Assembly (NCBI GenBank): GCA_032718475.1
Contig: JAUCBJ010005260.1
Location: 14,424 to 78,423, forward strand
From: Nemertoderma westbladi
Lineage: Eukaryota; Animalia; Xenacoelomorpha
DNA length: 64,000 nt
Direction: 5' to 3'
The notes under the pieces were generated by a model that did no database searches, was not told where the DNA came from, and saw only the letters and a list, made by a program, of their open reading frames with translations. Numbering within the stretch: position 1 is the first letter of the stretch; each line of letters starts with the position of its first letter. This document shows positions 1-57,430 of the stretch, in pieces. The position numbers and the translations under genes are program-made.

Positions 1-53
1 GCAGCTCCAGTAGTGAGGATACTGTAGAGCTGACACCCGAGCGCGGAGCGGAG

Positions 54-2669
54 ATGACGGATGCGGTTTATACGGATCCCCTTCTCATCCTTCCTGCAGC
101 CGTACTCAGCGGGTTATTGATCGCGGTGGAAGAACACCAGATCGATTGGGCGAGGAGTCAACGATCCACTAGAGATAGTTATGCGGGGTACACGAGGGAA
201 GAATTGAAGTCTATTGTCGAGTCGCAATGGAACTTCCCCGGACCCGGACTCCCGTTTGATTTATCAGAAGCTACCTGGGAAGACATACACCGGATGGGAG
301 TAGCCAAGGAAACTATCGATCCAGCTGTATGGAAGAGGTCCGCAGCCGGATACGCACAGGGATTCTTCAGCTCTATGGAGCGAGTAGAAAGACAACTATT
401 TAAACAACCTCAAGGACCTCAAGAGCAGGAACAGCTGCTTTATCAAGTTAGAGAAAGAGTTCTGCGAATTAGGCTAATCTTATCCGCCTTTGAGGAGGCT
501 TCTAAAAGAAGACAAGACACGTTGTTGCAAGTTGCCGTAAAGACTTGGCTTCAAAGGGTGAGACGCCAGGTTCAAGGAGCAGCTCAGTGGAAAGTTCAGT
601 TGGAGGAGCGCTCAACACAAGGAGAATCGACAGACGCTACTTTCTCCCAAGTGGAAGGTGAAGCGACGGCAGAGAAACCGCATAAGAAGGATGCCATTGA
701 TATCTATCTGTCAGACTATCAGCGTTTTGTGGGAGATGAAGAGTTGAGGAGAAGGCTAGAGGGACTTAGCCCTAATAGCGAAGGAGCCAAACTTGTGTTA
801 GATGCGATTGATGTGGATAGGTTAGCGGCGAACCAAGCTAAATTCGATGAACAACTCCGCATCGCTAGAGAAAAGGAAGAACAAGTAAGGAAAAAGCGTA
901 TAGAAGACAGAAAGATAGCAGCAGTGGCAGAGGCAGAAAGAAAAGCGGCAGCGGCAGAGGCAAAAGCGGCAGCGGCAGCGGCAAAAGCGGCAGCAGTGGC
1001 GGAAGCAGAACGAAAAGTGGCGGAAGCAGAACGAAAAGCGGCAGCGGCAGAGGCAAAAGCGGCAGCAGCAGAGGCAAAAGCGGCAGCAGTGGCGGAAGTA
1101 GAACGAAAAGCGGCTGAAGAGATCATCCAACTGGAGTTGGAAAATCTTCAAGAGAAGCAAGACGACTTCAGTAAACAGTTAGCAGCTAGTAATATGCAGA
1201 TGATGAGTCGATCTACTCCCAAAAGACAAGGGTATACCTCATCTGAGGAAGGTGATACCACCGACACTGAAGGCGGAAGAAATCGATCTCGCCTAAGCAG
1301 ACGTAAAAGAACATTCCACCGGCAGAAATTGCCTGATTTGCCTCCAGCTGTTAGAAGGCAACTAAATAACACCAAAGTAGGTAGTACAGAACCCACAGAC
1401 CAAATGATTACAATAGAAAGACTCCCTACTATAGTAGATGAGCCTGAAATAAGTAGGCCTGTTTTTGAAATCACCCCTTCGGTAATGGATACGCCTGTGC
1501 TCCCTGAAGCTACCTATAAATTCCCTCTGCATAGCACTAAGCTACCTGTGCCCCGTAGAACTGCCCAGGAGACAGTTCAGGTCCTGGACCCCGAGCGAAA
1601 TATTCCAATTTTGTCGCCCGTTGTCCCTCGTCGGCCCGCTACGACGTTGGCGGATCCCGTTTCGGCGGTTGATTGGGTAGACGAGAGACGGCGGGGGATG
1701 GATATTCTCCTCGGAGAGATGAAGGAGAATCGGAGACTCTCCTCCCAACAGGTCCGAGAGTTGGAAGGGACTGTCCAACATTTAAAGGGAACAGTGAGGG
1801 AAAGTAAGTTAGAGTTGCAAGAAGTGCAGCAAAATATCGCGCTAGAGCGCGATAAATTAGTAAATTTACAAAAGGGTATACCACCACCCCCTGTAACAAT
1901 GTGTCAACCCGTTAGGTCTGAAGTATCTCATGCGCAAGGTGTGGAGCCTACACGCATTTATACTGCTAGCGAAGTAGAGACTCCTATAGTGAACACTATT
2001 AAGGGTAATTATAGACCTGTTGATAATGATATTCCCTATAGAACTGATCATAATCCGAGAAATTTATATACCGATAACTCGATATTAAATAGCACGATGG
2101 CCCAAGAAAGTTTTACGCGTCAAATGGCTAGAACCGAAGCCCGGCAAGCGGTAAAGGTTGGAGAGATCGTCAAGTTCAATGGAGATGAGATGAAATGGTT
2201 ACCTTTTAATGAATATTACAAAGATAACATACAGAACTCTGTACTATCTAATGGAGAAAAACTTAGATACCTCATCGAGTGCTTGGAAGGATCTCCCAAG
2301 TTAATGGCGTTAAAGTTTATTGGACATCCAGACGGATTAAGACAAGTTTGGGATACACTAAACATCAGGTATGGTAATAGGAATAATATCGCTGGGTACT
2401 TGTATGCCAAGTTAGTAGCGCCCCGAAAGTTTATTAGTAGCGGAATTATCGAGTTTTCCGATGAGATCCAGGAGATCTGCAGACAATTAGACTGGCTAGG
2501 TAAGTCTCATGAGTATCAGAACACTATGGTTATTAGAGCAGTGGCTTCTACTTTACCGAAAGGTGGAGTAGGTACACGCTGGGATAAGAAAGTACTATAT
2601 ATGATGGAACAACAACGACGAGACCCTACCATGGCTGATCTCATGTCATTCTTGGATGGTGGTTATTAG
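54..2669 (+). CDS. gag: Gag of host Bel/Pao element (coiled-coil N-terminus, DUF1759-like domain); frameshifted by a 133-bp tandem duplication
   Basis: ORF track 871 aa; motif KFNGDEMKWLPF...EKLRYLIECLEG...L..RYG. The ORF ends within the duplicated segment. Confidence 0.85.
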   Translation: MTDAVYTDPLLILPAAVLSGLLIAVEEHQIDWARSQRSTRDSYAGYTREELKSIVESQWNFPGPGLPFDLSEATWEDIHRMGVAKETIDPAVWKRSAAGYAQGFFSSMERVERQLFKQPQGPQEQEQLLYQVRERVLRIRLILSAFEEASKRRQDTLLQVAVKTWLQRVRRQVQGAAQWKVQLEERSTQGESTDATFSQVEGEATAEKPHKKDAIDIYLSDYQRFVGDEELRRRLEGLSPNSEGAKLVLDAIDVDRLAANQAKFDEQLRIAREKEEQVRKKRIEDRKIAAVAEAERKAAAAEAKAAAAAAKAAAVAEAERKVAEAERKAAAAEAKAAAAEAKAAAVAEVERKAAEEIIQLELENLQEKQDDFSKQLAASNMQMMSRSTPKRQGYTSSEEGDTTDTEGGRNRSRLSRRKRTFHRQKLPDLPPAVRRQLNNTKVGSTEPTDQMITIERLPTIVDEPEISRPVFEITPSVMDTPVLPEATYKFPLHSTKLPVPRRTAQETVQVLDPERNIPILSPVVPRRPATTLADPVSAVDWVDERRRGMDILLGEMKENRRLSSQQVRELEGTVQHLKGTVRESKLELQEVQQNIALERDKLVNLQKGIPPPPVTMCQPVRSEVSHAQGVEPTRIYTASEVETPIVNTIKGNYRPVDNDIPYRTDHNPRNLYTDNSILNSTMAQESFTRQMARTEARQAVKVGEIVKFNGDEMKWLPFNEYYKDNIQNSVLSNGEKLRYLIECLEGSPKLMALKFIGHPDGLRQVWDTLNIRYGNRNNIAGYLYAKLVAPRKFISSGIIEFSDEIQEICRQLDWLGKSHEYQNTMVIRAVASTLPKGGVGTRWDKKVLYMMEQQRRDPTMADLMSFLDGGY
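918..1115 (+). repeat. Coding minisatellite encoding AEAERKAAAAEAK repeats
   Basis: Repeated GCGGCAGCGGCAGAGGCAAAA / GTGGCGGAAGCAGAACGAAAA units. Confidence 0.9.
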
Positions 2670-2792
2670 AGCAGTGGCTTCTACTTTACCGAAAGGTGGA
2701 GTAGGTACACGCTGGGATAAGAAAGTACTATATATGATGGAACAACAACGACGAGACCCTACCATGGCTGATCTCATGTCATTCCTAGATGG
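2527..2792 (+). repeat. 133-bp tandem duplication in gag
   Basis: TGGTTATTAGAGCAGTGG... starts at both 2527 and 2660. Confidence 0.95.
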
Positions 2793-3991
2793 AGAAGTGA
2801 AATTGCAACTCCTCAAGCAGTCTCGAGAGAAGACACCGGAAAACAAGGTAAGTGAAAAACCAGTCTCTAGGAGAAAGGTAACACCAGTGTGTTATACAGA
2901 CGACGGCGAAAGCCAGACTTCTCAAGGAGAAGATAGCGGGAAGGACACTAATAGATCTTATTATGTCAATAAAATGCCTAAAGATCAGGTAAGTAAATTC
3001 AAGTCTCGAACAAATGACAGGAGGGAACAGGTAAGAAAAACTCCTCCCACGTCTCCCAAGAGAATTCAGGTGAGAAAACCCGAAGAAAAGGCAAGTGTAC
3101 ACAATGTGACTCAAAACAAGGTAAGTAACATCAAACCAAAATGTGCGCTGTGCGACGGGACCCACTATTTGAATAGGTGTGATGAATTTCTAAAGAAATC
3201 ATTAACGGAGAGACGCGAAGTCATGTGGGATAAGCGGTTATGTTATAATTGCCTCAGACAAGGACACCAACGGCGAACCTGTTTCTCTGACATAAGGTGT
3301 GCAAAGTGTGGTGCGAAACATCATATCTTGTTGCACGCTGAATTCGATCGAAATAGTCCGAATCAGGTAAGTGATTCCGAGCTACATGTCCAATTCAGTG
3401 ATGTGAACGACACTGATCAATCTGAGATGGAAGGATTCTATACAGACGAGTTCTCTGACGAAAACGAATCCTGTTACATGATAAATACCGCAGTGTATCG
3501 AGCACTCACATATGAAAGAGATACAGAGAACGACTTTACTCTAACTACTTCTGAACGACAACCACCTTGGAAAGAGACATCCTCCAATGTAGGGATCCGA
3601 GAGTTTCCTGTGGTGCAGGTAAGGGTTCACGGACCTAAGAGGAGTTATGTAGTGAACGCCCTCCTGGACTCCGGCAGCACAGGAACATTCATCGATAAAG
3701 AGTTAGCCGAAGATATATTTGCTGGACAACCCAAGTTCCAAACTAAGCTCAATATGTCGGGCATTATGCAAGTTTGGAAATCTACAATAACAGCTGATTA
3801 TTATGTCGGAGCGTTGTCCACCCCCCAGGACGAATTAGGAGAACACAGCATAAGGTCAGTGAAAATGGTGGCTATAAAGAACTTCGCTACTACTCAAGCA
3901 GACCTTTATGATTGGGACGAGGATGAGAGCATCCAGCATCTTAACATACCTCGATTCCAGACTGATTATCCTGGAGTGCAAATACTCATCG
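2656..3991 (+). CDS. Gag C-terminus (3 zinc knuckles) and Pao aspartic protease of host element, cut by nested insertion
   Basis: CALCDGTHYLNRC, CYNCLRQGHQRRTC, CAKCGAKHHILLH, ALLDSGS. Confidence 0.9.
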
Positions 3992-4118
3992 TATAGAATT
4001 ATATTCCCTAAATGCCGTGGATTTTCAAAATTTTTATTTTATTCGAATTAACTTTGTAAAGATTGCTTTGAGTTCTCATTAGTATTGGTTCTATCTATTG
4101 TGTATCTATCGGTCAAGT

Positions 4119-4205
4119 GGTTCAGTAGCTCAGTTGGTAGAGCGTTGGAAATTATATGTGTAGTAGGTATCGAGTTCGAATCCTAGTAAGTGCGAATTAT
4201 TTTTT
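4119..4205 (+). ncRNA. tRNA-derived Pol III-type unit in LTR U3 (not a canonical tRNA)
   Basis: A box TAGCTCAGTTGG(TAGAGCG) at 4126, B box GAGTTCGAATCC at 4172 and a T6 run at 4200-4205. Acceptor and anticodon stems do not pair properly. Confidence 0.6.
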
Positions 4206-4402
4206 GTGCAGAATTTCAACTCATTTAAATTAACCGCTACAAATTAATTGCATTTGTCTGTACCAATAAGGCTGTAGTTATTTGATTGTAACCAATGTCG
4301 TGCAAGTTATATATTAGCTGGACCAATAAGCTATCTTTAAAACCTTGTTAGAACCCATAGAACAATCGAGAATTTTCTCGATTGATTGCAGCACAAATTT
4401 AG

Positions 4403-4410
4403 TATATAAA
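4403..4410 (+). promoter_or_regulatory. LTR TATA box
   Basis: TATATAAA preceded by repeated ACCAAT motifs and followed about 20 nt later by Inr-like TCATTAGTT. Confidence 0.6.
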
Positions 4411-5914
4411 GGTGCGATTCGTTCATTAGTTATCAATCTCTCAATCTTGTATTTCAATCTATACTTCTCAGATTTATTCTGTCGTGCTTAGTTTATTCTC
4501 AGATTACATTGTATTATAATTGTATCTTCTGTAATAAAGTCAGAATATTCTCTCAGTTTTTCTGTTTTACTATGAATTCACTACGGTGAACAAACTCGGG
4601 GACAGGATGGCCAGCTAGAGATCGGGCCGCAGCAATGAACGGGAACATCACGGGAATGTAGACGAGAGACAACCCGCAATACCATCTAGTGTTATTCGCC
4701 CATCGCCTGAAAGGTTAGACAGCGTTCGATCCTTGCTACCTAAGTATAAGACCAAAAGATCAAAAGGTAGACGCAGTGACACGCTGTAAGCCCAAAATTA
4801 CATCATAGGGACTGTACTGTCTTGATTCAGGAAAAAACCGCAGTAGACCTTCATATTCCTACGGGGGGAGGGAAAGCGCAGGCAGATACTAGTACGCAGA
4901 TAGGACGTAGGCACACCGGTACAAGGCATACACATTGGTTAGGGTGCAGCAAACTGTACGCTTAACTCTTGCTAAGTACAGGTGTGTGTGCGACTATTTG
5001 CCGTACAACGGTGTCCAGTGCATTAGAACTTGTAGGCTAGGGGGGTTGCTGTGTTTTCACCTGAATTGGGATTGTACCGTTCAGGCGGTAGGGCAGTTTA
5101 CGCTAGGCGCAAAATAAATTGAGGCTATCAGGGATATACTAACATCTACCGTGTCCCCGCCAACGCCCTAATAGGAAGTTACCCGGACTACCTGGGTGAC
5201 TAAAATTCTAGATAGGAGCCAGGATAGCTATTAGTACCCGTACGCCTACAGTAGTAAACTAACACATCTCTTCTTAGTATCAGGGACCTGGTACCTAAAA
5301 TTGCCGAATTCTGGGCGTAGTATTAACCTTATGCCTGAATTTGAGTCCTGGAAATACGCAAGAGGGGAAGGAACCTTACCATTCGTGAGTATTGGACCTA
5401 CAAGTTACAAATTAGAATATTCGTAAAATGCACACCGTACCCAGTAATTATATATGTGAAGGAGCAAAACTGCTTTTGACCGTTCAGAATTAACACACGC
5501 GCGTTAGAAATTATTTACACCTCAAAATATATAAAATTAACTTAGTCCGTACTGTGCTTTGCCCGCTAGTTAGACATCTCCAAATCTGCTCTGTACCTAG
5601 CTAGCGTCCTTTCGCCCAACCATATAAATCACACCGCGGCAAAGTATACGAGCCTCTTAGTCCGTCAGTGAGTCAGCCTGATTTTAGGATTCGCTGCGCG
5701 GGATTTTGTTTTATCGAAGTTTGTCCGCTCGTAGACTGTTTTCTGCCTCACCGGTTAAAAGAGATAGATACTGCAATATATTCGCTTACTTAGGGTTTAC
5801 TGTTTTGGTGAGAAGGTCGGATTTATGATTTGATTTACAAACTTTACAGTAGGATATTGCAGGTATTGTTACCGTCTCTTCCGATAGTAGGAATAGGCGT
5901 ATCTCTCCAATTTA

Positions 5915-5925
5915 GTAGGAATATG
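5915..5925 (+). promoter_or_regulatory. Non-tRNA primer-binding site, complementary to LTR 4852-4862
   Basis: GTAGGAATATG abuts the LTR end; its reverse complement CATATTCCTAC lies at 4852-4862. Confidence 0.7.
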
Positions 5926-6516
5926 TTTTACTGAACTACGGTTTGGTAGGACTAAAGTTATTTGAAAATTTTGTATTTTGAGGTAAAAAATTTATATTTG
6001 ATTAGCTAAGTGCTAATTTTTTGAAATAAAATTTGATTTGAACCGCGTGTAAAATATTTTGGAATTGAATACCGGTGTTTAAAAAGGGTTTAAATACCAT
6101 ATTGTACCGGTACAAAATTTCGTAAAGTAAAACCTAACTCTTTTGTTTTTCAGGATTCAGAACTCATTTCTAGACTGTAACGGGAGCAAGACCGTGTTTA
6201 GCAAGTTTGGGAGATAGATAACCCAACAACTTTGGTTGGGAAAATCGCGTTTCGTCCGCAACGTTAAAAACGGAAAGGTTCACGTTCGGTTTGTATCTGG
6301 GAATCTGTTTTTCTGGAGAATTATTGGAGTGGGTGAGTTCGAAAAGTTGCATAAATAAGTTAGGCATTACCGTATTAGTTAAAATTATTGTGGGTTCCAC
6401 TGTCTCAAGTATTTATGCATTCCGTATGATTTCTTTGTTCATTGCTGAATTAGTCCGTATTATTGTATTTAATTTACCTTTTGATAACGCATATCGTTAT
6501 CCGATTTATTTGTTAT

Positions 6517-6721: not shown

Positions 6722-9700
6722 ATGAGTGACAAACAAGACTATACGAAGAATACACAAACCGACTATGACTCATGTGACGCGGATAAGTCAGCAGCGGAAG
6801 AACAACAGGGGAAGACTCGCGAGCCTACCGAACCTACACCGTGTGCGTCACCAGTACATCCAACGGGAGTACCGGATGCCGTAGTACGAGGCGACGGCAG
6901 GACCGAGGACTTTCTAACTGTTCCGCAACCTAGATACAGGGAAACGGAAATGGTAAGTTCAGCAGGAAGCACAGAGAGCGTGGTTAGAAGCGTCGGAGGT
7001 TACATGGCGCATATAACCAGGAGTATTGGAGAAGACCAACGCATATTAGACGGGTTGACCGCTCCGATGTCTCGATTCGAGTTCTACACCCTCCAGGTTA
7101 GAGTACAGAGTAAAGTATATAAGTCCGTAGATAATCTAGTTGGCCTACAAGATCTAGCTAGACAGAGACAGGACATGGATACTCAACTTAGAATCCTCGA
7201 GAAACTAATGATCACTAGAGAGAAACTGATTCAGTTTAAGTCGACGATTAGACAGATACAACAGGAACAAGCGGACCAGTTGTTAGGTGAGTCAGTTTCG
7301 GACGAATTATTACAGCCCGAGGAAGAACAGGAACTGTACCGACTGGATGGACAATTGAAACACCTGACGGACCACTTACGCATGTGCGGCGAAGACGTCG
7401 GCGATTTAGAAACCGTGCCGGAATACACGAGGGAAACTCCATTCGCACAAATCGAATCGGCACCGGGAATACTAAATCAATCGCTGGTAAGTATTCGTAG
7501 CGAAATCTGCGAGGGAAGTATGGTCACGTCAGAAGTTGCTCGACAACAGCAACAGTTCTACAGACAGCAACACGAGATGGAAGAACAAGCTCAACTTCTA
7601 ATGATACAAACAGCAGTAGAGGAAGAGAAAATACGTGTTGCGAATGTAGCGAGAATCTCTCATCTGCAGGAACAAGCCGAACTCGAAGCGGCCGAAATGG
7701 AAAGGTTAGAGTTGGACATTGCCCAACAAGCGGCAGCGGCCGAGTTAGCGCAACGAACGGCAACAGCCGAGTTAGAGCGACAAACGGCAGCGGCAGCCGC
7801 AGCGGCAGAGTTAGAGCGACAGACGGCAGCGGCCGAGTTAGAGCGACAAACGGCTGCGGCAGAGTTAGAGCGACAAACGGCTGCGGCAGAGTTAGAGCGA
7901 CAAAGATTAGTTTCGGAAGCCAGAGTCGAGATGAAGACACGGCAAATAAAAGCCCAACAAGCGATACGACAAGCAGAGTTCGAGGCGCAACAACAACAAA
8001 CGGAACAACGAGAAAAGGAAGTTAAACTTCGTTTCGAACTTGAGAAAAGGGCGAGAGAATTAGCCGAAACTAAGGAAAATCTGGATCTTCTAGCCCGCGA
8101 TCGATCGATGAGATCTCGTGACGGACATGATTTGGACCAGTTAGAGGTAAGACATCGCCAAATTCAGGAACGGAAGAAGGAAGGAAGCATAGGAGCACCC
8201 GGACGGGAACGACAATTAGTAAAGGACGTGTGTCAACGATTCCCACAGGTAACTCATATGTTTGCACCGGTTACGACTAAGGAACCTGTTTCGATTGCGG
8301 GTAGTAGTGATATTTCTCCTATCCATGGTGCGACGGAACACAGGTTTGTTATTCCGAACGAGTTTATACCGCCAAGAGCAACGTCGTCGCCCATTCCGAA
8401 AGTCAAGGTAAGTAACCCACCGATTACAGATCGTAGTAGTTTATTAGTCAGACCTGCACTACTGACGACAAAACAGGTGAGTCCACCTTTGACACCTAAA
8501 CCCGTTACGCACTACGATTACCCAATGACATTTCGGCCTACAAGGCCTTTGGATTCAAACGCGGTCGTCCGACCACCATTCAATCAGTTTACGTCGCAAT
8601 CTACGACTTCGAGGAAGACTTGTGAGCCTACCGAACAATGGAGAACAGTGGATACGCGACCGGTTCAGTTTACGTCGCAATCTACGACTTCGAGGAAGAC
8701 TTGTGAGCCTACCGAACAACGAAGAACAGTGGACGATGTTCCGAAACGAGCCGTTAGAATTCGAACGACGCAACGGACGCGAGCACGTCGACCACCATAT
8801 CCAGATGATAGTAGTACTTCGAGCGAATCGGATTACCCGAAACGCGAGGTATTTAGAACAGGGGCGGCCGATGAATATAAACGCGAGCGTTCAGACAACT
8901 CCTTTGCAGACAATCCTCCACAGAATACACCAACACAGAAGGCGTTACAACCAACGGACGCAATTAGTACACAACAGTTCGCCGACATTCTGCGACCAGT
9001 TGTCAACAAGTTGGCTCAGATTGAGGAGCGTCTGGAGGAAGTTCAAACCGATAGTTCGAGGAACACCGAATTCGAACACAATAGACACCCGAAGGCACCA
9101 CAAAGACCGGTACCTTCAAACCCCACATCGTATCAGGGAAAAGCGCCTAGAAGGGAGAACATCAACCAGGTTACCAACCAAGGACGCGAAACTCTGAACG
9201 TTGCAGAGGAGATAGCGAAATTCGCAGCCAGACAGGGATTGCCGGTACAACAACCACCGAAGTTTTCCGGTAGCTCAAAACACTGGCATACCTTCGTAGA
9301 CTATATCGAATCCCAGATCGCCGTGTGCGCCTTTACATCACGGGAGAAGTTCAATTACCTGCTCCAAACGTTGTCAGGAGAACCTAAACGTTTGGCGGAG
9401 ACTTTCGTTGGTGTACCGGACGCTTTCGAACTAGCGTACGATCGTTTGACTTCGATATACGGAGGTACAGTGAGTATGGCCAGGTCAGTAATAGAGGAAC
9501 TCTGTAAGGGAGGGGCTATCACTAAACCCGTCGACTTACTAAAACTGGCTGACGAGATTAAGAACGCTATCACTACCTTAAGATCAATTGGACAACTTGA
9601 TTACGGGAATACCCCTACAGTTCTATTAAAGATAATAGGACGACTCCACCATCGACTTCGTCGGGGGTGGAGGAAGGTCGAATACCAGCGAGAGGAGCGA

Positions 9701-12700
9701 GGAGGATTCCTAAAATTAGAAGATGTGTACCTTTTAATATCCAGGGAGGCGGTAGTAGAAACTCGATCTAACTATACCGACCAGCACATCGTGGCAGAAG
9801 GAATCACACTGCCATCCTCCAGCCGACAAAAACCCCAGACAACATCCACAAAGACGGCCACTTATGCCACACCGACGGAATCACGACAATTCTCAGACGG
9901 GAATAGAGTATCTGCGCCCATTGGAACGAAACAGACGAGACAGCAACTCAGCGCCGACTTCAACGGCTGCCAATACTGCGAACATTTAGGTAAGCGGTAT
10001 ATTGGTCACAAGTTACGAGGTTGTCGACAATTTCGCGAGTTGAACTCAGAAGAACGACGGCTGCAGATACGGCCACTGGACTCTTGTTGGCGGTGTACGC
10101 GACACGGACACGTCCGTAAGGATTGCCCAAATACCGACACTTGTCCATCCTGTGGACGCAACCACGACGGTCTGCTCCACACAGACAGCCACACGCCGAC
10201 GAAACGCTTCGCCAGGGAACACCCGGAAGCAGCAGCGAGATGTGATGCGGCTTACCGAAAACGAGAATCGAAAACGACTCCGACTTTCGTGACCCATATA
10301 GAGGATTGCTTTTCAGAACAATCCGGATCGTCGGACGAAGAATCAGAAGACGACGAATATTCAAATGGAGACGAACAACCGTCAATCGCGCTTCTAACCA
10401 CTGACCAACTGAAGGGATTCAGTGTAATCCCGATTAAGATCACTGGCACGAAGGGGAGTAAGAGGATCTACGCGATTCTAGATTCAGCCTCATCTCACAG
10501 TTACGTGGATGAAAAGATAGCTGACGTCGTAACGGATCTAAGACAAGGTAAACACATCAGTTATACAGTAAGTAGTATGCACGGCCAGCGTGCAATACCA
10601 GTGACACGAGTTAAGTTGGACTTAGACTCTCTTCTTCCAAAATCGCAACACAGCGAGAGGGAGAGGTCTTTGTTGCCCTTTAGAGATCTAACCTTTGCTG
10701 CCACGAAGGACTTTAGTAACCTACTAGGTCCAGTGCCGGAACAATCTCTGGAGGACCGTAAGTATTTCAGACACCTTGGTGTACCCGAATGTCCTGTCAA
10801 TTATAGATCGGTAGCAATGCTGATCGGGACGGACCAATTCAACCTACATCAGGTGTGGGAAACCAGACCATCGGCAGTTGTAGCGGGAAACGCATACGCC
10901 TGCAGAACGCCGATAGGGTGGTATACTCGAGCGCCTGTGCGCACACTAGACGTAAGTGACGAGGAAGACGATGTACAGAGTACATGTAGTTTATTAACTA
11001 CAAATTCAATTCATTCCTTTTCACACGACGTGAACCATACTACACTACAGTCGACAAAACATGACAGACGTGTAACTAGTATGATAAGTCACAAGGAGCA
11101 GCTAACCCACCAGGTGAGTTTAGAACTTGGGGAGAAGACGAATCAGCTAGAGATTCCATCGACGACAGATGATAGGCTTGCGAGTCTACCTACCCCAATA
11201 ACCTCAACAGTGCCCGTCGACATCGACGATGACGCGTTGAAAATTCATCAGTTGGAACAAGCCGCCTTGGACAAAGAATTAACGGAGAAGACTATCAGGT
11301 GGTTAGAACAAGATACAGCTGAACCTGGTAGCTACGAACCTTGTATGTCGGAACAGGAGAAACAATCTCTGAAGATCATGGAAGAGACTATCCGACAGAC
11401 GGAGGACGGACATTACGAGGTGGGGATGTTATGGCGTAGCCAAAGTCCTAAACTTATAAATAACTACCCACTGGCTTTGAGACGTCTACACTCAATACGA
11501 CAACGTCTATTAAAGGACGAGAAAGCCCATCTGCAGTACAACACTCAGATGGAGACGTATTTGACTGAAGGATACGCTATCCGAATGACTAACCCGGAGC
11601 GAGTGACCGACCAGACATACTACCTGCCACATCACTATGTGAGACATCCCGACAAACCAGATAAGGTACGCGTAGTCAATGACTGTGCGGCTCTGTTTGA
11701 GGGAATGTCCCTCAATAGTGAGTTGATGGATGGACCGAACATGAATAATTATCTTATGGGGGTGATTATGCGCTTCCGTCAGCGTCAAGTAGCCTTTACT
11801 TGCGACGTTGAAGCGATGTTTCACCAAGTAAAAGCGTTAGAGCGAGACAGAGACAGTTTGCGGTTTCTCTGGTATCCGGAAGGGGACTTAAGTCTACCAC
11901 CAGCGACTTACCAAATGCAAGTTCGCGTTTTCGGTGCCAGAGACAGCCCAAATTGTACGATGTACGCCTTGAAGCAAGCCGCTAGAGATCAGAAACATCT
12001 GTATGACCCAGAGATAATTAGAATTGTAGAACGTGACTTTTACGTTGACGACGGATTACAGAGTTGCGACACAGTAGAACGTGCTACAACAGTAGCACAT
12101 CAATTACGGGACTGCTTGGCGGGCGGAGGTTTTAACCTCACCAAATTCGCCTCAAACAGTGCCGAATTAGTTGACTCATTCGGAACTACTGAGCGTGGAG
12201 GTGGTGACATAGACCTAGAGTTCGAACCACTACCGACGACTAAGGTGTTGGGGCTCTTTTGGGACCCAAACACAGACAACTTTCGAGTGAAGGTGAGACT
12301 GGACAGTCAAGGAGACACACTGACCAAGAGATCATGCTTGTCAAAGTTGAGCCGATTGTTCGATCCGTTAGGATTCATCAGTCCAGTAATACTGCAAGCT
12401 CGCATTTATATGCGCAGTATATGGAAGGATGGACTAACGTGGGACGAGCCGATCTCATCAGACCAAGTGGACTTATGGAAGACCTGGGAGGCGGAATTGT
12501 CTTCGCTAGAGGATTATTTCATACCCAGGGTTTACTTTCCATTACAGAGTACATTTCCTGACAACTTGGAACTACACTGTTTTTCTGACGCCAGTGACAA
12601 CGGTTTTGGTGTGGCAGCGTATTTGCGCAGACAAGTAGAATCGGACGAGTTCGATGTTTCGCTCATTACTTCTAAGGCTAAGACCATGCCCACTAAGTAT

Positions 12701-15433
12701 ATGACGACACCACGAGCCGAGCTACAAGCCGCGACCCTGTCAACCACCATCGTGAACCTCATACAGACAGAACTACAGTCGAGTTTACAGATATTTTATT
12801 GGACTGACGCGACGTTGGTTTTATTTTACATAAACAACGACACACTCGAATTCAAGACATTCGTAGCTAACCGTCGCGCAGAGATTCTAGACCGTTCGAT
12901 AAAAGAGGATTGGCGACATTGTCCAGGACCACAAAACCCAGCTGATATTGCGTCGCGAGGAATGATGCCTGAGGAATTCTGTAAACCGGAGAACAAAGAG
13001 TTTTGGCAACACGGACCCCAGTTCTTGCAGAAATCGACACAAGATTGGCCTCCGTTATACGACAACAAATCCAACACCATTCCTAAGGACGCCGAAATCA
13101 AGAAACCAAAAAAGGGGAAGACAAAGAAAAAGACGACGGCGGCAAAACTCAAGAAAAAACCGAAGGCGAAATGGAAAGATATAACTTCAAAGGTCAAGAG
13201 AGGAAGACTTGCGAGCCTTTCTACACCAGACATATCGCCAGACGGTCAACCAGACATATCGCCAGACGGTCAACCAGACACGTTACTAGACAGTCAACCA
13301 GACATTTTGCCAGACATATCACAAAATGTTCCACCAGACGCTAGTAACACACTGACAAACAGTAAAGCCGCAGTTTCTCTATTGGAGCGGCCTTCTATTG
13401 ACAAACAACTAGATACGTTACCAGACGTATCGCCAGACACATTACTAGACAGTCGACTAGACACTAGTAATGTATTGACTAACGATAAAGCCGCAGTTTC
13501 CCTATTGGAGCAGCCTTGTATTGACAAACTACCGATTTTGACACACTTGAGCAACCATAAGCACGGTGAAACCTCATGTATTACAGATGTGGGTAGTACC
13601 TACGCTAATGTAAATACAGGTGTTACTTTGCGCTCAAGAGACATACCGAACTTACAACCTACGGTGAGACCTGGGATTAATGTCGGCAGGAAAATAAGTT
13701 TACCGAAACCTGCTGACCCCATAGAGTTCAAACCACCATTAACGATCGACTTACAAAGTACCGACAATCAAGGTAAGAGGACAAAGGGGGACAAATTACT
13801 TGTAGACCCGGACGGATCAACAGTCAACAAGGGAATACCTACCGGCGGACCCGTGGGCCCTTCTAGTAATTTAAAACCTTCCAAATTCTCCATTGACTTA
13901 CCTGATGACGTCACAAATACTTACGTCGACCGAATTGTAAACTTAACAGACTCTTGGTCAAACGCTTGCCGAAAATTAGCGTGGATTGTACGTTTCGTAC
14001 AATACGTTAAAGGCAAACGTGACTTTACACGTCGACTTACATTGGCTGAGATTGACAGGTGTGAGATTCAATTAATTCGCCATTATCAACTGCGATATTT
14101 CGCGCGCGAATTCACATCTATAAATCAAGGTCAACCAATCAAGTCGTCACCAATACTGAGTTGGAGTCCGATTATTTATAATGGCTTAATTTGTCACAAA
14201 TCTCGGCTTCAAAACATTGACTTTAACACAAACTTTAGGTACCCAATAATAATACCGCAACATCACGAACTACAACGTGCAATGATACTGGACGCACATT
14301 TACATCTGAAACACGCTGGAAGACACCACTGTCTTTCCTACTTACGTACTAGATTTGTATTAATTAGACCCAGTAAAGCATTAAGTTCAGTGACACGTAC
14401 GTGTATTATTTGTAAAAAGGTACATTCTAGAATAGGTACCCAAGAAATGAGTGAACTACCACAAGCACGACTTCAAGCATTCAGACCACCTTTTACAGAG
14501 ACTGGAATTGATTGCTTTGGTCCCATACATACGAAACGTGGACGTATACTAGTAAAACGCTGGGGACTGATTTTCACATGTATGTCCAGTAGGGCAGTCC
14601 ACATTGAACGTGTGATGGATCTTTCCACCAACGCGTTTATACTAGCACTGCGGCGATTTATCGCTAGACGCGGACTAGTAAAATGCTTGTACTCAGACCA
14701 AGGGACAAACTTTGTTGGTGCTCGGAATGAGATTGCTAGAGCCTTTAAGAAATTAGATCATGATCAAATCTCGAACGAACTGCAACCTCACAAGATTGTT
14801 TGGAAGTTTAATCCTCCAGATAGTCCTTGGAGAGGCGGAGTCTGGGAGAGATTGATTAGATCTATCAAGACAGCCATGGCAAAGGTCATTCCAGTAAACC
14901 ACATACTAACAGACGACCAACTGACAACATTGTTTGTTGAAATCGAGGCAATACTAAATACTAGACCAATAGTATTAGTACCCGATAACAAACAATCTCA
15001 GTTTGCTTTGACACCGGCACACCTGCTTATGCAGGCACCGACCACATTGACGCCGATTTCCATTCCAATGGAAAGCGATAGTTACGGTAGAAAAGCTTGG
15101 AAAATCACGCAACTACTGGCTAACAAATTCTGGGAAATATGGCAAAACCATTATTTGCCCTCTATTTCTGCCAGAACAACTTGGTATAATAACACCCGCG
15201 CATTAAAGCCGGGAGATCACGTGCTGTTGGCAGAAGTGAATCTAAAAAGACGCTTCTGGATAACAGGTGTAATTTTAGCCACACATCCATCTATGGATGG
15301 AGTGACAAGGACTGTGACGGTACGGACAATTGACGGTCGTACAGTAGACAGACCGACTCAACGTCTCGTACTTCTTGAAGAGACTCGTAACGAGTCTGGA
15401 GACTACAAATCTCCACCTAATACTAGTAAATAA
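6722..15433 (+). CDS. gag-pol: Bel/Pao Gag-Pol polyprotein (Gag, zinc knuckles, protease, RT, RNase H, integrase), 2903 aa
   Basis: AILDSAS; YYLPHH..K.DKVRVVND; CDVEAMFHQV; FGARDSP; FYVDD; LHCFSDAS; NPADIASRG; GIDCFGP, YSDQGTNF, PW.GG.WERLI. Confidence 0.97.
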   Translation: MSDKQDYTKNTQTDYDSCDADKSAAEEQQGKTREPTEPTPCASPVHPTGVPDAVVRGDGRTEDFLTVPQPRYRETEMVSSAGSTESVVRSVGGYMAHITRSIGEDQRILDGLTAPMSRFEFYTLQVRVQSKVYKSVDNLVGLQDLARQRQDMDTQLRILEKLMITREKLIQFKSTIRQIQQEQADQLLGESVSDELLQPEEEQELYRLDGQLKHLTDHLRMCGEDVGDLETVPEYTRETPFAQIESAPGILNQSLVSIRSEICEGSMVTSEVARQQQQFYRQQHEMEEQAQLLMIQTAVEEEKIRVANVARISHLQEQAELEAAEMERLELDIAQQAAAAELAQRTATAELERQTAAAAAAAELERQTAAAELERQTAAAELERQTAAAELERQRLVSEARVEMKTRQIKAQQAIRQAEFEAQQQQTEQREKEVKLRFELEKRARELAETKENLDLLARDRSMRSRDGHDLDQLEVRHRQIQERKKEGSIGAPGRERQLVKDVCQRFPQVTHMFAPVTTKEPVSIAGSSDISPIHGATEHRFVIPNEFIPPRATSSPIPKVKVSNPPITDRSSLLVRPALLTTKQVSPPLTPKPVTHYDYPMTFRPTRPLDSNAVVRPPFNQFTSQSTTSRKTCEPTEQWRTVDTRPVQFTSQSTTSRKTCEPTEQRRTVDDVPKRAVRIRTTQRTRARRPPYPDDSSTSSESDYPKREVFRTGAADEYKRERSDNSFADNPPQNTPTQKALQPTDAISTQQFADILRPVVNKLAQIEERLEEVQTDSSRNTEFEHNRHPKAPQRPVPSNPTSYQGKAPRRENINQVTNQGRETLNVAEEIAKFAARQGLPVQQPPKFSGSSKHWHTFVDYIESQIAVCAFTSREKFNYLLQTLSGEPKRLAETFVGVPDAFELAYDRLTSIYGGTVSMARSVIEELCKGGAITKPVDLLKLADEIKNAITTLRSIGQLDYGNTPTVLLKIIGRLHHRLRRGWRKVEYQREERGGFLKLEDVYLLISREAVVETRSNYTDQHIVAEGITLPSSSRQKPQTTSTKTATYATPTESRQFSDGNRVSAPIGTKQTRQQLSADFNGCQYCEHLGKRYIGHKLRGCRQFRELNSEERRLQIRPLDSCWRCTRHGHVRKDCPNTDTCPSCGRNHDGLLHTDSHTPTKRFAREHPEAAARCDAAYRKRESKTTPTFVTHIEDCFSEQSGSSDEESEDDEYSNGDEQPSIALLTTDQLKGFSVIPIKITGTKGSKRIYAILDSASSHSYVDEKIADVVTDLRQGKHISYTVSSMHGQRAIPVTRVKLDLDSLLPKSQHSERERSLLPFRDLTFAATKDFSNLLGPVPEQSLEDRKYFRHLGVPECPVNYRSVAMLIGTDQFNLHQVWETRPSAVVAGNAYACRTPIGWYTRAPVRTLDVSDEEDDVQSTCSLLTTNSIHSFSHDVNHTTLQSTKHDRRVTSMISHKEQLTHQVSLELGEKTNQLEIPSTTDDRLASLPTPITSTVPVDIDDDALKIHQLEQAALDKELTEKTIRWLEQDTAEPGSYEPCMSEQEKQSLKIMEETIRQTEDGHYEVGMLWRSQSPKLINNYPLALRRLHSIRQRLLKDEKAHLQYNTQMETYLTEGYAIRMTNPERVTDQTYYLPHHYVRHPDKPDKVRVVNDCAALFEGMSLNSELMDGPNMNNYLMGVIMRFRQRQVAFTCDVEAMFHQVKALERDRDSLRFLWYPEGDLSLPPATYQMQVRVFGARDSPNCTMYALKQAARDQKHLYDPEIIRIVERDFYVDDGLQSCDTVERATTVAHQLRDCLAGGGFNLTKFASNSAELVDSFGTTERGGGDIDLEFEPLPTTKVLGLFWDPNTDNFRVKVRLDSQGDTLTKRSCLSKLSRLFDPLGFISPVILQARIYMRSIWKDGLTWDEPISSDQVDLWKTWEAELSSLEDYFIPRVYFPLQSTFPDNLELHCFSDASDNGFGVAAYLRRQVESDEFDVSLITSKAKTMPTKYMTTPRAELQAATLSTTIVNLIQTELQSSLQIFYWTDATLVLFYINNDTLEFKTFVANRRAEILDRSIKEDWRHCPGPQNPADIASRGMMPEEFCKPENKEFWQHGPQFLQKSTQDWPPLYDNKSNTIPKDAEIKKPKKGKTKKKTTAAKLKKKPKAKWKDITSKVKRGRLASLSTPDISPDGQPDISPDGQPDTLLDSQPDILPDISQNVPPDASNTLTNSKAAVSLLERPSIDKQLDTLPDVSPDTLLDSRLDTSNVLTNDKAAVSLLEQPCIDKLPILTHLSNHKHGETSCITDVGSTYANVNTGVTLRSRDIPNLQPTVRPGINVGRKISLPKPADPIEFKPPLTIDLQSTDNQGKRTKGDKLLVDPDGSTVNKGIPTGGPVGPSSNLKPSKFSIDLPDDVTNTYVDRIVNLTDSWSNACRKLAWIVRFVQYVKGKRDFTRRLTLAEIDRCEIQLIRHYQLRYFAREFTSINQGQPIKSSPILSWSPIIYNGLICHKSRLQNIDFNTNFRYPIIIPQHHELQRAMILDAHLHLKHAGRHHCLSYLRTRFVLIRPSKALSSVTRTCIICKKVHSRIGTQEMSELPQARLQAFRPPFTETGIDCFGPIHTKRGRILVKRWGLIFTCMSSRAVHIERVMDLSTNAFILALRRFIARRGLVKCLYSDQGTNFVGARNEIARAFKKLDHDQISNELQPHKIVWKFNPPDSPWRGGVWERLIRSIKTAMAKVIPVNHILTDDQLTTLFVEIEAILNTRPIVLVPDNKQSQFALTPAHLLMQAPTTLTPISIPMESDSYGRKAWKITQLLANKFWEIWQNHYLPSISARTTWYNNTRALKPGDHVLLAEVNLKRRFWITGVILATHPSMDGVTRTVTVRTIDGRTVDRPTQRLVLLEETRNESGDYKSPPNTSK

Positions 15434-16089: not shown

Positions 16090-16425
16090 ATGGAGAAAGG
16101 GATACAAGGAGAGCCGAGATGGGGATATGATATCCAAGAGGAGGCAGCAGCGCCATTCGAAAGATTTGGAGCCAAGGATTACACTATATTTGGTATAAAG
16201 GAATTATCAGAAAGTACAGCGAAGCTCGCAAAGACAGCAATGCCTTTACTCGAGCAGGATTTAGCATATTTCGAGACGTGTATCTTCGCTGTGCGGGATC
16301 TCTTATCGAAAGACCATCTATGTTTACATTGTTACCCTATGAAGGAGAACGTATCGTGGAGATTATGGATGAATCACGGCAGACGCGCGCGCCTATCGGT
16401 CACCTTGGTGATGAATTCGAAGTAA
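16090..16425 (+). CDS. Small overlapping ORF upstream of accessory gene (111 aa, unknown)
   Basis: ORF track; lies just downstream of a splice-acceptor-like signal (CTAAC...pyrimidines...AG, 16029-16059). Confidence 0.3.
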   Translation: MEKGIQGEPRWGYDIQEEAAAPFERFGAKDYTIFGIKELSESTAKLAKTAMPLLEQDLAYFETCIFAVRDLLSKDHLCLHCYPMKENVSWRLWMNHGRRARLSVTLVMNSK

Positions 16426-17792
16426 CTACTACGATCGCCGACGATCCTTTAGAGGAACTTCTTGAGATAGAAAGGAACCTCCCGAAGAAATCTCAGACGG
16501 AGATTCGACAACTTGAAGCAACAGATGCTATAGTTTGTATACAACCTTCAGAAACCTACCAACCCATAGACCCAGATGATTACGATTATAGTATGGGAGG
16601 AAGCGCTCGACCGATTGGAGATCTTATATACGAACGAGTGTGGTACCCTGCCAATACGATGTGTAATAAATGTGGCGTCGCTGGACATCATATGGCAAAG
16701 TGCAGTGGAAAGCACATTACTACGACTCAGCTAATCTGTGGATGGTGTGGGGATCAAGGGTCTCATACCTTTTATACTTGCTGGAGATTTATGGCTCAAT
16801 GTACTTACTGCAATATAAAGGGACATCGAGCATCTGAATGCCAACTAAGGGACATACCTTATGAACACGAATCTGTAAAACTCGTGAGGAAGTTATTTGA
16901 TGAGTGGGAAGATTTAGCCGACGAACATGTATCGGCACAAAGAAGACGGTTTCCGATGAGAGCGCATCTCGGATTTTGGGCGGTAAATCCTCAAACGATG
17001 ATGTCGGAAGGATACATCTCCGCTATGCCTCAGTACGACGAACTTATCGAGGTTGTCGATATTTTGCCCCACGACAGCGGATTCCGAGTGGTGCGCGAGT
17101 ATCTGTTACAGATTCACCCGGATAACAAAAACATGTGGAATTTTCAGAAAGTCGTAAATCGTATCACGTATGGTGAATTTGATCGTTTCCGAACCGAAAA
17201 GCGGAATAAAGGAGCTTGGTTAACCGTCGCATGGGCGTACCGAGCCGCGTTTTACCATAAACGTATACGAGCGAGCGTATTCGAGGAAGAAGAGGTCCTA
17301 GAGGCGACGAATATATCAGCCACTCCGGTTGCGCCGTCTGCACGTCACCCTCGGGAGGACGGGCAGGGTAGGATCATACGGGTCCAGAAGGTGGGCCAAC
17401 AATTGAAGAAAATTATTAATGTAGAAGAACGCAAGGGAGTTGAGCCGACTATTCGAGTTACTCGGGATACGGTATCACTTCCAAGAGAACCGGTAGGAGG
17501 ATCGGGACATACACCAGCTGATCAACAGGGGGCGCAAGCTACTCTTGGGTCTGCGTCGTCCGCTTCTCACGCGTTCCCAGACGTTCTACCAACTGTAGCG
17601 ACGACTGATCGGTCACGAGGAATTGGTCGAGGTTTTGGGATGCCAAATAGACGAATTTGCGAGGAAATAGTTGCACCGTCTCTCAACGTCCCAAGTAAAC
17701 CAGTGACTCGCCCCATTAGTCCCATATCGCGAGCAAAGTCACCTGTGCGCAGTTTTCGAGGACGCGGCAGGGCTCGATCTACTAAGCGATAA
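16278..17792 (+). CDS. Accessory protein with triple CCHC zinc knuckle and basic C-tail (start uncertain; frame open from 16131)
   Basis: CNKCGVAGHHMAKC, CGWCGDQGSHTFYTC, CTYCNIKGHRASEC; alignable by eye to 25437-27326. Confidence 0.85.
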   Translation: MYLRCAGSLIERPSMFTLLPYEGERIVEIMDESRQTRAPIGHLGDEFEVTTTIADDPLEELLEIERNLPKKSQTEIRQLEATDAIVCIQPSETYQPIDPDDYDYSMGGSARPIGDLIYERVWYPANTMCNKCGVAGHHMAKCSGKHITTTQLICGWCGDQGSHTFYTCWRFMAQCTYCNIKGHRASECQLRDIPYEHESVKLVRKLFDEWEDLADEHVSAQRRRFPMRAHLGFWAVNPQTMMSEGYISAMPQYDELIEVVDILPHDSGFRVVREYLLQIHPDNKNMWNFQKVVNRITYGEFDRFRTEKRNKGAWLTVAWAYRAAFYHKRIRASVFEEEEVLEATNISATPVAPSARHPREDGQGRIIRVQKVGQQLKKIINVEERKGVEPTIRVTRDTVSLPREPVGGSGHTPADQQGAQATLGSASSASHAFPDVLPTVATTDRSRGIGRGFGMPNRRICEEIVAPSLNVPSKPVTRPISPISRAKSPVRSFRGRGRARSTKR

Positions 17793-18400: not shown

Positions 18401-18610
18401 AGATTTATATTGTACTTACTTAGTAAAGCCTTAAATACGTAAAGTTTGAATTTGTAATTATTTTTGTATCGAATCATTACGTAGAAAGGAAGTATTGTTT
18501 GAAATTTAATTGTAAATATGTAAGTACGCCCTAAGTATTCTATAGTTTGATTGATTATTGGTGAAAACCGTATATTTTAAGCACGATAATATCCTGTTTT
18601 CATGGAGCGG

Positions 18611-20533
18611 TATAGAATTATATTCCCTAAATGCCGTGGATTTTCAAAATTTTTATTTTATTCGAATTAACTTTGTAAAGATTGCTTTGAGTTCTCATTA
18701 GTATTGGTTCTATCTATTGTGTATCTATCGGTCAAGTGGTTCAGTAGCTCAGTTGGTAGAGCGTTGGAAATTATATGTGTAGTAGGTATCGAGTTCGAAT
18801 CCTAGTAAGTGCGAATTATTTTTTGTGCAGAATTTCAACTCATTTAAATTAACCGCTACAAATTAATTGCATTTGTCTGTACCAATAAGGCTGTAGTTAT
18901 TTGATTGTAACCAATGTCGTGCAAGTTATATATTAGCTGGACCAATAAGCTATCTTTAAAACCTTGTTAGAACCCATAGAACAATCGAGAATTTTCTCGA
19001 TTGATTGCAGCACAAATTTAGTATATAAAGGTGCGATTCGTTCATTAGTTATCAATCTCTCAATCTTGTATTTCAATCTATACTTCTCAGATTTATTCTG
19101 TCGTGCTTAGTTTATTCTCAGATTACATTGTATTATAATTGTATCTTCTGTAATAAAGTCAGAATATTCTCTCAGCTTTTCTGTTTTACTATGAATTCAC
19201 TACGGTGAACAAACTCGGGGACAGGATGGCCAGCTAGAGATCGGGCCGCAGCAATGAACGGGAACATCACGGGAATGTAGACGAGAGACAACCCGCAATA
19301 CCATCTAGTGTTATTCGCCCATCGCCTGAAAGGTTAGACAGCGTTCGATCCTTGCTACCTAAGTATAAGACCAAAAGATCAAAAGGTAGACGCAGTGACA
19401 CGCTGTAAGCCCAAAATTACATCATAGGGACTGTACTGTCTTGATTCAGGAAAAAACCGCAGTAGACCTTCATATTCCTACGGGGGGAGGGAAAGCGCAG
19501 GCAGATACTAGTACGCAGATAGGACGTAGGCACACCGGTACAAGGCATACACATTGGTTAGGGTGCAGCAAACTGTACGCTTAACTCTTGCTAAGTACAG
19601 GTGTGTGTGCGACTATTTGCCGTACAACGGTGTCCAGTGCATTAGAACTTGTAGGCTAGGGGGGTTGCTGTGTTTTCACCTGAATTGGGATTGTACCGTT
19701 CAGGCGGTAGGGCAGTTTACGCTAGGCGCAAAATAAATTGAGGCTATCAGGGATATACTAACATCTACCGTGTCCCCGCCAACGCCCTAATAGGAAGTTA
19801 CCCGGACTACCTGGGTGACTAAAATTCTAGATAGGAGCCAGGATAGCTATTAGTACCCGTACGCCTACAGTAGTAAACTAACACATCTCTTCTTAGTATC
19901 AGGGACCTGGTACCTAAAATTGCCGAATTCTGGGCGTAGTATTAACCTTATGCCTGAATTTGAGTCCTGGAAATACGCAAGAGGGGAAGGAACCTTACCA
20001 TTCGTGAGTATTGGACCTACAAGTTACAAATTAGAATATTCGTAAAATGCACACCGTACCCAGTAATTATATATGTGAAGGAGCAAAACTGCTTTTGACC
20101 GTTCAGAATTAACACACGCGCGTTAGAAATTATTTACACCTCAAAATATATAAAATTAACTTAGTCCGTACTGTGCTTTGCCCGCTAGTTAGACATCTCC
20201 AAATCTGCTCTGTACCTAGCTAGCGTCCTTTCGCCCAACCATATAAATCACACCGCGGCAAAGTATACGAGCCTCTTAGTCCGTCAGTGAGTCAGCCTGA
20301 TTTTAGGATTCGCTGCGCGGGATTTTGTTTTATCGAAGTTTGTCCGCTCGTAGACTGTTTTCTGCCTCACCGGTTAAAAGAGATAGATACTGCAATATAT
20401 TCGCTTACTTAGGGTTTACTGTTTTGGTGAGAAGGTCGGATTTATGATTTGATTTACAAACTTTACAGTAGGATATTGCAGGTATTGTTACCGTCTCTTC
20501 CGATAGTAGGAATAGGCGTATCTCTCCAATTTA
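18611..20533 (+). repeat. 3' LTR of nested Bel/Pao element
   Basis: Direct repeat of 3992-5914 (one T/C difference seen, 4557 vs 19176); preceded by GGAGCGG. Confidence 0.97.
18738..18824 (+). ncRNA. tRNA-derived Pol III-type unit in 3' LTR
   Basis: Copy of 4119-4205. Confidence 0.6.
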
Positions 20534-20537
20534 CATC

Positions 20538-21425
20538 GGCCAAAACGCGCATGAGGCGCTGGAGACATTAGAGAAACGACCTACTCAACCGCAACCACTT
20601 CAGACCTATGCGGTAAGAACTAGAGTAGGTTGGTACCTTACTGGACCTTCCCGTAGAACGCTCAGGGAAAGACTGCTTCAAGATCGCGTCTGCCAGGTGA
20701 GTGAATGGGAAGATGATACTAGTGAGGGAGACGACCCAACTGAGGGAACACCACACTCCTCAGATAATGACAATCTTAGCTCCAATGTAGATCAATGGAG
20801 ATATTGCCCCAAGAAGTTTAATCCAACGGACATCGCTTCCAGAGGAGCAACTCCTCAAGAACTGACAGATACTATAGACCGGTTAGGTGAACCCGACTTC
20901 CTGAGTAAGGAGAATGAATGGCCTCCCCATCTTACTCCGACTGAGATTAGACCAGCCAAGGGAGCGGAGAAAGTCGAACCTGAAACCCGGACGGGTGGAT
21001 CGGAGTTATTTGAACCCGGGATAGATCTGTCGGTATTACATGTTGCCAGGGACGACGCCGTGGATCTGAGCCTCCCCTCCGCGAGTGGATCCTTCATGAA
21101 GATCAGAGAGAGCGATTGGAGCTCTGGAACATCAGACGTCTCGCAGGGACTCTCACCTCTCCTGCAGAGAGCGACGGACCACTATAGCTCCTGGAATCGG
21201 CTTTGTGACGCCGTCATATACTTTGAGCGATGTTTCTATCGTCACTATTCCAGGACGAAGAGGAAACCTGGAATTGTATTCAGGATGCAGCGACTCAATC
21301 ACCCAGTCGGTCGTTTGTGTTTATCGGAAGGGAATGGAGGACTCTCAGGAAACTATGGAAGGCAAGAAACTCTTCCCACGACCACTTCCCTAATCCAACC
21401 GACATCTAGGGACTCCCCAACTTAA
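20538..21425 (+). CDS. Continuation of host polyprotein: protease end fused to RNase H tail remnant; RT and integrase absent
   Basis: In frame with 2656-3991 once the insertion is removed. Contains AVRTRVGWYLTG, WRYCPKKFNPTDIASRG and YSSWNRL, then a stop. Confidence 0.85.
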   Translation, partial: GQNAHEALETLEKRPTQPQPLQTYAVRTRVGWYLTGPSRRTLRERLLQDRVCQVSEWEDDTSEGDDPTEGTPHSSDNDNLSSNVDQWRYCPKKFNPTDIASRGATPQELTDTIDRLGEPDFLSKENEWPPHLTPTEIRPAKGAEKVEPETRTGGSELFEPGIDLSVLHVARDDAVDLSLPSASGSFMKIRESDWSSGTSDVSQGLSPLLQRATDHYSSWNRLCDAVIYFERCFYRHYSRTKRKPGIVFRMQRLNHPVGRLCLSEGNGGLSGNYGRQETLPTTTSLIQPTSRDSPT

Positions 21426-57206: not shown

Positions 57207-57430
57207 CTTTTCGACAACCGCAAGTAATATGTATATTCAAATCTCTTATAAAGGGCATCACCGTAAGAACAACTGAAATTTTTTAATTATTTTCTTTGAA
57301 GTTGATGTTTTAAAGGGTTTTCTTTTTGTAGTATTTACTCTAGGTATATCTTGTGGTTTTAAATCAGTAGCTAACGGTTTACTCGATACTAAATATAATT
57401 TTCTAAATGTTACTCCTGTTTTAACCATTA

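Follow-up and report, generated by a model that had tools for sequence, protein, structure and literature searches.

A young Bel/Pao retrotransposon of Nemertoderma westbladi very probably supplies its own primer for reverse transcription in some form, be it an internal primer released by a cut or a strictly 5'-terminal or trans-acting one. As judged from the sequence, minus-strand DNA synthesis is probably self-primed by the element's own RNA at 4852-4862, used as an internal primer and freed by a cut. Coordinates refer to the window, the whole stretch of 64,000 nt that was analysed (contig JAUCBJ010005260.1, positions 14,424 to 78,423). The two sequences on which this reading centers are:

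5915..5925, + strand: putative primer-binding site, starting at the first base after the LTR, with no TGG
4852..4862, + strand: predicted self-primer, the exact complement of 5915-5925, with its predicted 3' end at C4862

The element that contains them is intact and very young, its LTR pair showing one mismatch (at 4557) in 1923 bp. Its main features are:

3987..3991, no strand: left target-site duplication, 5 bp, with the identical 5 bp at 20534-20538
3992..5914, + strand: 5' LTR of 1923 bp, delimited by repeat comparison, beginning and ending with TA
6722..15433, + strand: Gag-Pol, a single open frame of 2903 aa, identified by Pfam domains and motifs
16131..17792, + strand: extra open frame of 553 codons from stop to stop, with three CCHC knuckles
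18601..18610, + strand: polypurine tract
18611..20533, + strand: 3' LTR, with the second primer copy at 19471-19481
20534..20538, no strand: right target-site duplication

Gag-Pol is arranged as DUF1759, zinc knuckles, protease, RT (YVDD), RNase H (Peptidase_A17), integrase (HHCC, D-D-E) and DUF5641. Pfam hits in the 2903-aa frame are PF03564 (DUF1759), PF05380 (Peptidase_A17), PF17921 (Integrase_H2C2) and PF18701 (DUF5641), the same domain set that is carried by its best protein homologs, and a motif check found the protease, RT, RNase H and integrase motifs all intact and in Bel/Pao order. The domain set and its order, the two LTRs, the polypurine tract and the target-site duplication are all those of a Bel/Pao element; the Pfam search returned no chromodomain match in Gag-Pol, and the polyprotein is of the Bel/Pao rather than the Ty3/Gypsy type. 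The empty insertion site is present in contigs of sequencing run X1, possibly an RNA run (loose end at 3991). These contigs showed no joint in the LTR or leader, and of the 40 differences listed out of 179 none lies within 4852-4862 or 5915-5925, a result that carries no weight as evidence on the primer. This is a young and apparently competent Bel/Pao retrotransposon.

Several further features of the element were recorded. The extra three-knuckle frame (16131-17792) has no Pfam match and no homolog in the protein database search, and a similar frame (26064-26882, 26% identity) occurs in the older element into which this one is inserted. A motif of ~17-21 nt is found in seven copies across coding and non-coding parts (6810, 8611, 8692, 13202, 15717, 17813 and 18294). 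The leader has a likely intron at 5983-6153 (donor-like sequence at 5983, strong acceptor at 6153, branch-like motif) and another strong donor at 6333. A tRNA-like stretch in U3 (4112-4205, and its 3' LTR copy) has A-box- and B-box-like motifs followed by a T run; ARAGORN and Rfam make no call there, its fold has a z-score of -1.5, and it has no complementarity to the primer site.

The insertion lies within an older, damaged Bel/Pao element (1-3991 and 20534 to about 28500) that is missing most of its RT and integrase and has long extra frames at 23058-27326. The 3' LTR of this interrupted element begins with TG at 27405, directly behind a purine tract of similar kind; no end was found for it, it has no detectable DNA similarity to the LTR of the young element, and the primer site of the older element falls outside the window. 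Other retroelement remnants (34609-36036, 49190-50743, 56118-57236 and 60702-62162) amount to two RT frames, one integrase frame and one protease frame, and open frames at 40529-45589 have no Pfam match. Neither ARAGORN nor Rfam found tRNA or other RNA genes in the window.

All seven paired segments listed in the first-pass annotation lie at the coordinates that it gave, and the pairing does stop at the LTR boundary as it had claimed, with G4863 facing A5914. Its statement that there is no tRNA primer-binding site also holds: the sole TGG in 5900-6000 is at 5944, 30 nt beyond the LTR end, and the 18-nt host-tRNA site of the ICTV description of Bel/Pao elements is absent from the element. Within the window the 11-mer at 5915-5925 occurs once, and its complement occurs only at 4852-4862 and 19471-19481. 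For a chance control, LTR complements of at least 11 nt were counted at internal positions of the element (7 of 12,586) and the 11-mer was sought in Markov LTRs (present in 12 of 20,000); the chance of such a match is ~0.06% per position, and at most ~0.3% if six start offsets are allowed. Under the published definition of self-priming sites, i.e. an LTR complement of at least 10 nt starting 0-5 nt after the 5' LTR, the element scores 11 of 11 at offset 0. Two other candidates were dropped: the TGG at 5944 as primer site, which would move the LTR end 30 nt outward, and a splice-junction primer in this element, for which the best junction match is 7 nt vs 11 contiguous.

The neighborhood of the LTR end also holds traces of older sites:

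5849..5897, + strand: two degenerate primer-site copies inside the LTR end (at 5849 and 5887)

The degenerate copy at 5849 follows an ACA, the trinucleotide with which LTRs of relatives end. Because of these copies, and of the ACA before the one at 5849, the sequence suggests that the LTR end moved outward as the primer site was duplicated, which would account for the unusual TA end. The hexamer with which the primer site begins is found four times within 100 bp (5849-5956; at 5849, 5887, 5915 and 5946), the copy at the LTR boundary (5915) being the only one with a full match to the primer. A TA end with a clean 5-bp duplication also occurs in one relative (L021) and is not unique to this element.

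We searched for relatives in several collections. Protein collections held no close alignable relative, the best single-domain RT-RNase H matches being 43-44% identical and coming, where named, from marine invertebrates and fish; none was found among viral contigs, and no PDB entry matched RT-RNase H at E 0.001. Scanning metagenomes yielded 79 loci with 37-44% identity, 41 with a flanking direct repeat and 38 without one. Fifteen of the 41 were used in a fixed-rule test and 10 in a blind scan, and 16 were left out (contig-end overlaps, truncated or duplicate copies). In the 15 test relatives, whose RTs are ~40-46% identical, the 5' LTR end is readable from the repeat, with the caveats that the LTR end of L075 is the contig end and that L063 is 2 nt short at the end of its 3' copy; L017 and L052 were each trimmed by one base that matched by chance. 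A small number of assembly series supplied many of the relatives, which limits their independence. In a quick, unrooted tree built with no named reference elements, the tested loci spread widely and the window's element occupies a long branch whose position is uncertain; relative to the named Bel/Pao clades (Sinbad, Sailor, Dan, Suzu, Tas, BEL, Pao, Flow), its placement is likewise that of a long branch in a quick tree without references.

The fixed rule was a perfect complement of at least 10 nt, either contiguous or across a GT-AG junction in the element's own LTR. By this rule 13 of the 15 relatives match their own LTR with a perfect complement of 10-15 nt, to a site starting 0-4 nt after the LTR; 10 of them need a predicted GT-AG junction within the LTR to form it, and in three it is contiguous, as in the window's element. 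The remaining two reach only 7 and 8 under the rule; a hand-picked junction gives them 12 and 13 pairs, with a G-U in one of these fits and a weaker donor in the other. None of the 15 has a TGG in the first 8 nt after the LTR. Among random internal pseudo-sites, 5 of 960 reached 10 nt, and among swapped site/LTR pairs 11 of 240 did, nine of them among four related loci with one common site. Comparing site and LTR segment in related elements was a check that the first-pass annotation itself had proposed, and among these distant relatives 13 of 15 carry their own complement in differing letters. Its central reading, an element-encoded primer with no tRNA site as an analogue of Tf1, is thereby supported at the level of sequence (13/15 relatives vs 5/960 controls).

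When 10 more loci were scanned blind, the LTR end already known was recovered for all four sister copies, and five of six new families showed an ACA end followed by a junction match of 10-11 nt; singly these matches are weak, shuffled sequences reaching at least 10 in 1-6 of 20 runs per locus. Over the first ten pairs of the 16 elements (the 15 test relatives and the window's element), 159 of 160 are Watson-Crick and one is G-U, with 2-5 pair types per position. These pair counts are biased in favor of pairing, since the segments were chosen for it, and the unbiased figure is the match rate vs the controls. The site takes a dozen different sequences across the 16 elements, each pairing with its own LTR and not with those of others, a pattern that speaks against priming by a host RNA; the scarcity of G-U fits a primer that is copied into the site. 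Primers end in AC in 13 of the 16, including that of the window's element. The loop is much longer here (1052 nt) than in relatives (62-240 nt).

Primers present only across a predicted GT-AG LTR intron of ~67-430 nt were seen in L002, L007, L013, L017, L020, L021, L022, L024, L036, L040, L050, L052, L056, L057, L060, L063 and L075, and 4-7 nt of these intron-spanning primers come from the second exon. For such an intron to be inherited, the 3' LTR copy would have to stay unspliced.

The first-pass annotation extended the 11-bp duplex by helices on both sides:

4835..4847, + strand: outward helix arms, pairing with 5927-5933 and 5939-5944; marginal
4863..4869, + strand: inward helix arm, pairing with 5902-5908, with two G-U pairs (p about 0.02)
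5925..5952, + strand: predicted 12-bp hairpin right after the primer site

The pairing is present (two G-U pairs in the inward helix, one in the first outward helix), but it is marginal and is not a feature common to relatives. With the core duplex held fixed and the flanks shuffled, the outward extension was matched by 5.7% of 2000 and 3.0% of 200 shuffles and the inward one by 1.95% of 2000 and 1.5% of 200; in relatives the inward extension is significant in 0 of 15 and the outward in 4 of 15. Adding the flanking helices takes the two-strand duplex energy from -13.7 to -43.0 kcal/mol, and the local 12-bp hairpin (5925-5952) competes with the outward arms. In whole-leader folds, the probability of the duplex is 0.92 when the RNA 5' end is at 4852, 0.29 at 4831 and at most 0.03 at 4800, 4775 or 4435; for these last starts the duplex costs 2-9 kcal/mol where this was computed, the inward helix seldom forms, and splicing from a predicted donor at 4786 does not rescue the duplex. 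As modelled, folding speaks against the internal-primer version, although fold predictions over 1 kb are unreliable and take no account of chaperoning by Gag.

Candidate promoters and poly(A) signals bear on where the primer would lie within the RNA:

4403..4441, + strand: distal promoter candidate from a motif scan, with TATA at 4403-4410, an initiator-like motif with A4435, and CCAAT boxes upstream
4745..4791, + strand: proximal promoter candidate from a motif scan, TATA-like at 4745-4750, with the initiator-like A4775 exactly 30 nt on
4533..4538, + strand: AATAAA that precedes the primer and is followed by a U-rich tract; 3' LTR copy at 19152
5113..5118, + strand: candidate poly(A) signal, an AATAAA that follows the primer; 3' copy at 19732
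5775..5780, + strand: variant hexamer AATATA, candidate poly(A) signal, ~140 nt before the LTR end and followed by a GU-rich tract

A GTAAG-type predicted splice donor (4786) follows the proximal candidate, and this layout of a TATA, a short first exon and a GTAAG donor is common to the proximal candidate and relative L024. The distance from TATA to primer end is 118 nt for the proximal candidate (4745/4775) vs 460 nt for the distal one, and 43-221 nt in the six of 15 relatives with a TATA match. The transcription start ~430 nt upstream of the primer that the first-pass annotation assumed thus stands as one candidate, but 4745/4775 is a better fit to the range in relatives.

Twelve relatives have a poly(A) hexamer of the form A(A/T)TAAA, and in every one it follows the primer, at 49-149 nt from the LTR end, with none upstream; R therefore outlasts the cut, the layout needed for cut-and-transfer. 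The AATATA at 5775 lies within that range of distances. Among the 16 elements only the window's has an upstream hexamer (4533); L040 of the blind-scan set has one too. If the AATAAA at 4533 were used, the strong-stop DNA would be without homology for transfer and self-priming in cis would fail. Four further AATAAA in the internal region need read-through anyway, so the hexamer alone is not decisive. The cut after C4862 that had been deduced from the pairing works only if the RNA 3' end lies beyond the 3' copy of 4862, a condition that the first-pass annotation had missed.

The preferred model can be set out as follows. Transcription would start upstream of the primer, most plausibly at A4775, and the genomic RNA would end downstream of the 3' primer copy (at the equivalents of 5113 or 5775), so that R continues past 4862. 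The segment 4852-4862 would anneal to 5915-5925 across the 1052-nt loop, probably aided by the Gag zinc knuckles. A cut would follow after C4862, made, if Tf1 is a guide, by the RNase H of the element's own RT. RT would then copy 5914 to 4863 and jump to the 3' R. Plus-strand synthesis would copy the primer, and the site, rewritten each cycle, would stay perfectly Watson-Crick. The long loop, the upstream AATAAA (4533) and the folding results are points against this model.

Other readings of the match would share the pairing and differ in what primes. The RNA may start at 4852/4853, so that the primer is its first 10-11 nt in strict Tf1 fashion, or the primer may act in trans from a second LTR-derived RNA; we consider this unlikely. 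A start at 4852 is the only one for which the duplex is the favored fold (0.92), in L024 the primer is 43 nt from the TATA box, i.e. at the RNA 5' end, and 4851-4857 fits the pyrimidine-rich initiator consensus. A strict Tf1-type start is disfavored by the motif scan, which found no TATA-like box 24-38 nt upstream of 4852, and by the relatives, since the primer end is 135-221 nt from TATA in five of the six with a TATA, making an internal primer the commoner arrangement. It is decidedly improbable that the pairing is a structural switch (in packaging, dimerisation or translation control) and that priming at the site is left to a fragment of host RNA, for instance a tRNA half. The hairpins competing around the site could act as a switch, and tRNA-half primers are described for some Ty1/copia lineages in the accessible text of PMC6317226; a host primer would, however, hold the site to one sequence, and it takes a dozen forms in the 16 elements, with a match to the respective LTR in each. 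If the helix served structure alone, G-U pairs should be accepted as well, but all except one of the 160 pairs are Watson-Crick.

We regard it as very improbable indeed that the match is left over from an old inverted copy or arose by chance, with priming by some other route. The complement of 4835-4862 does align, with gaps, to 5915-5944, like a decayed longer copy, and the upstream AATAAA and long loop are unlike the layout of relatives. Against this, the element is intact and has just transposed (one difference in 1923 bp), the match has a chance of ~0.06% per position and begins exactly at the boundary set by the last priming, and no alternative primer site is present at that boundary. Returning to self-priming by an internal primer, we lean towards a wider picture: a broad branch of animal Bel/Pao elements may do without tRNA primers and use an internal primer cut from their own R, mostly built by splicing an LTR intron (only the spliced 5' copy primes), with the window's element as an intron-independent form that has a kilobase loop and an LTR end moved outward with duplication of the site.

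If this is true, self-priming arose in a third superfamily and is common there, and the absence of an annotatable primer site from such Bel/Pao elements is explained. It might also mean escape from silencing by tRNA fragments aimed at the primer site, and the internal primer, or the spliced primer of relatives, would represent a novel means of restricting copying to the right RNA. For the nematode element Cer7, a self-encoded tRNA-like primer has reportedly been found. The family description has Bel/Pao elements primed by host tRNA, and self-priming has been demonstrated in Ty3/Gypsy alone (Tf1), with a prediction for a single Copia lineage. No report of Bel/Pao self-priming was found in the open-access literature, the scope of the search, with subscription papers and supplements outside it; in their accessible parts, the Bel/Pao surveys PMC554778, PMC3118150 and PMC6238403 hold no discussion of primer sites that we could find, and PMC3601003, PMC8220671, PMC6934838, PMC3286476, PMC5443660 and PMC13524379 no Bel/Pao self-priming.

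The closest known systems are Tf1 and its kin, as far as described in the accessible parts of the papers cited here. In Tf1 the primer is the first 11 nt of the RNA, released by an RNase H cut between bases 11 and 12 (PMC7175516, PMC5341516, PMC4600332), and about half of the cDNA keeps a DNA copy of the site (PMC11042837). Tf1 and Tf2 (Schizosaccharomyces pombe), Tj1 (S. japonicus), the Tf1/sushi group and Tcn1 resemble the window's element in having an 11-nt LTR segment complementary to the primer site and no tRNA. Despite likely working in a Tf1-like way, the element is not a member of the Tf1/sushi group: it is Bel/Pao rather than Ty3/Gypsy, its primer probably lies inside the RNA and not in the first 11 nt, and it has a ~1 kb loop, while most relatives here differ from the Tf1 group in that their primer exists only across a predicted splice junction. 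Self-priming has also been predicted, from a complement of at least 10 nt located 0-5 nt after the 5' LTR, for Tcn1 and for the TAR lineage of Ty1/copia (PMC6317226, accessible text); the TAR elements (Houba, Osr-1) show the same kind of complement as the window's element, but they are plant Copia elements, and there too self-priming is a prediction only. Belpaoviridae, as profiled in the accessible part of the ICTV description (PMC8742986), have an 18-nt site that binds host tRNA-Arg or tRNA-Gly, LTR lengths of 0.2-1.2 kb and genome sizes of 4.2-10 kb. The window's element shares with them the single Gag-Pol frame, the Bel/Pao domains, the LTRs, the polypurine tract and the 5-bp target-site duplication, and departs from that profile in its lack of a tRNA site, its 1.9-kb TA-ended LTRs, its length of 16.5 kb and its extra zinc-knuckle frame.
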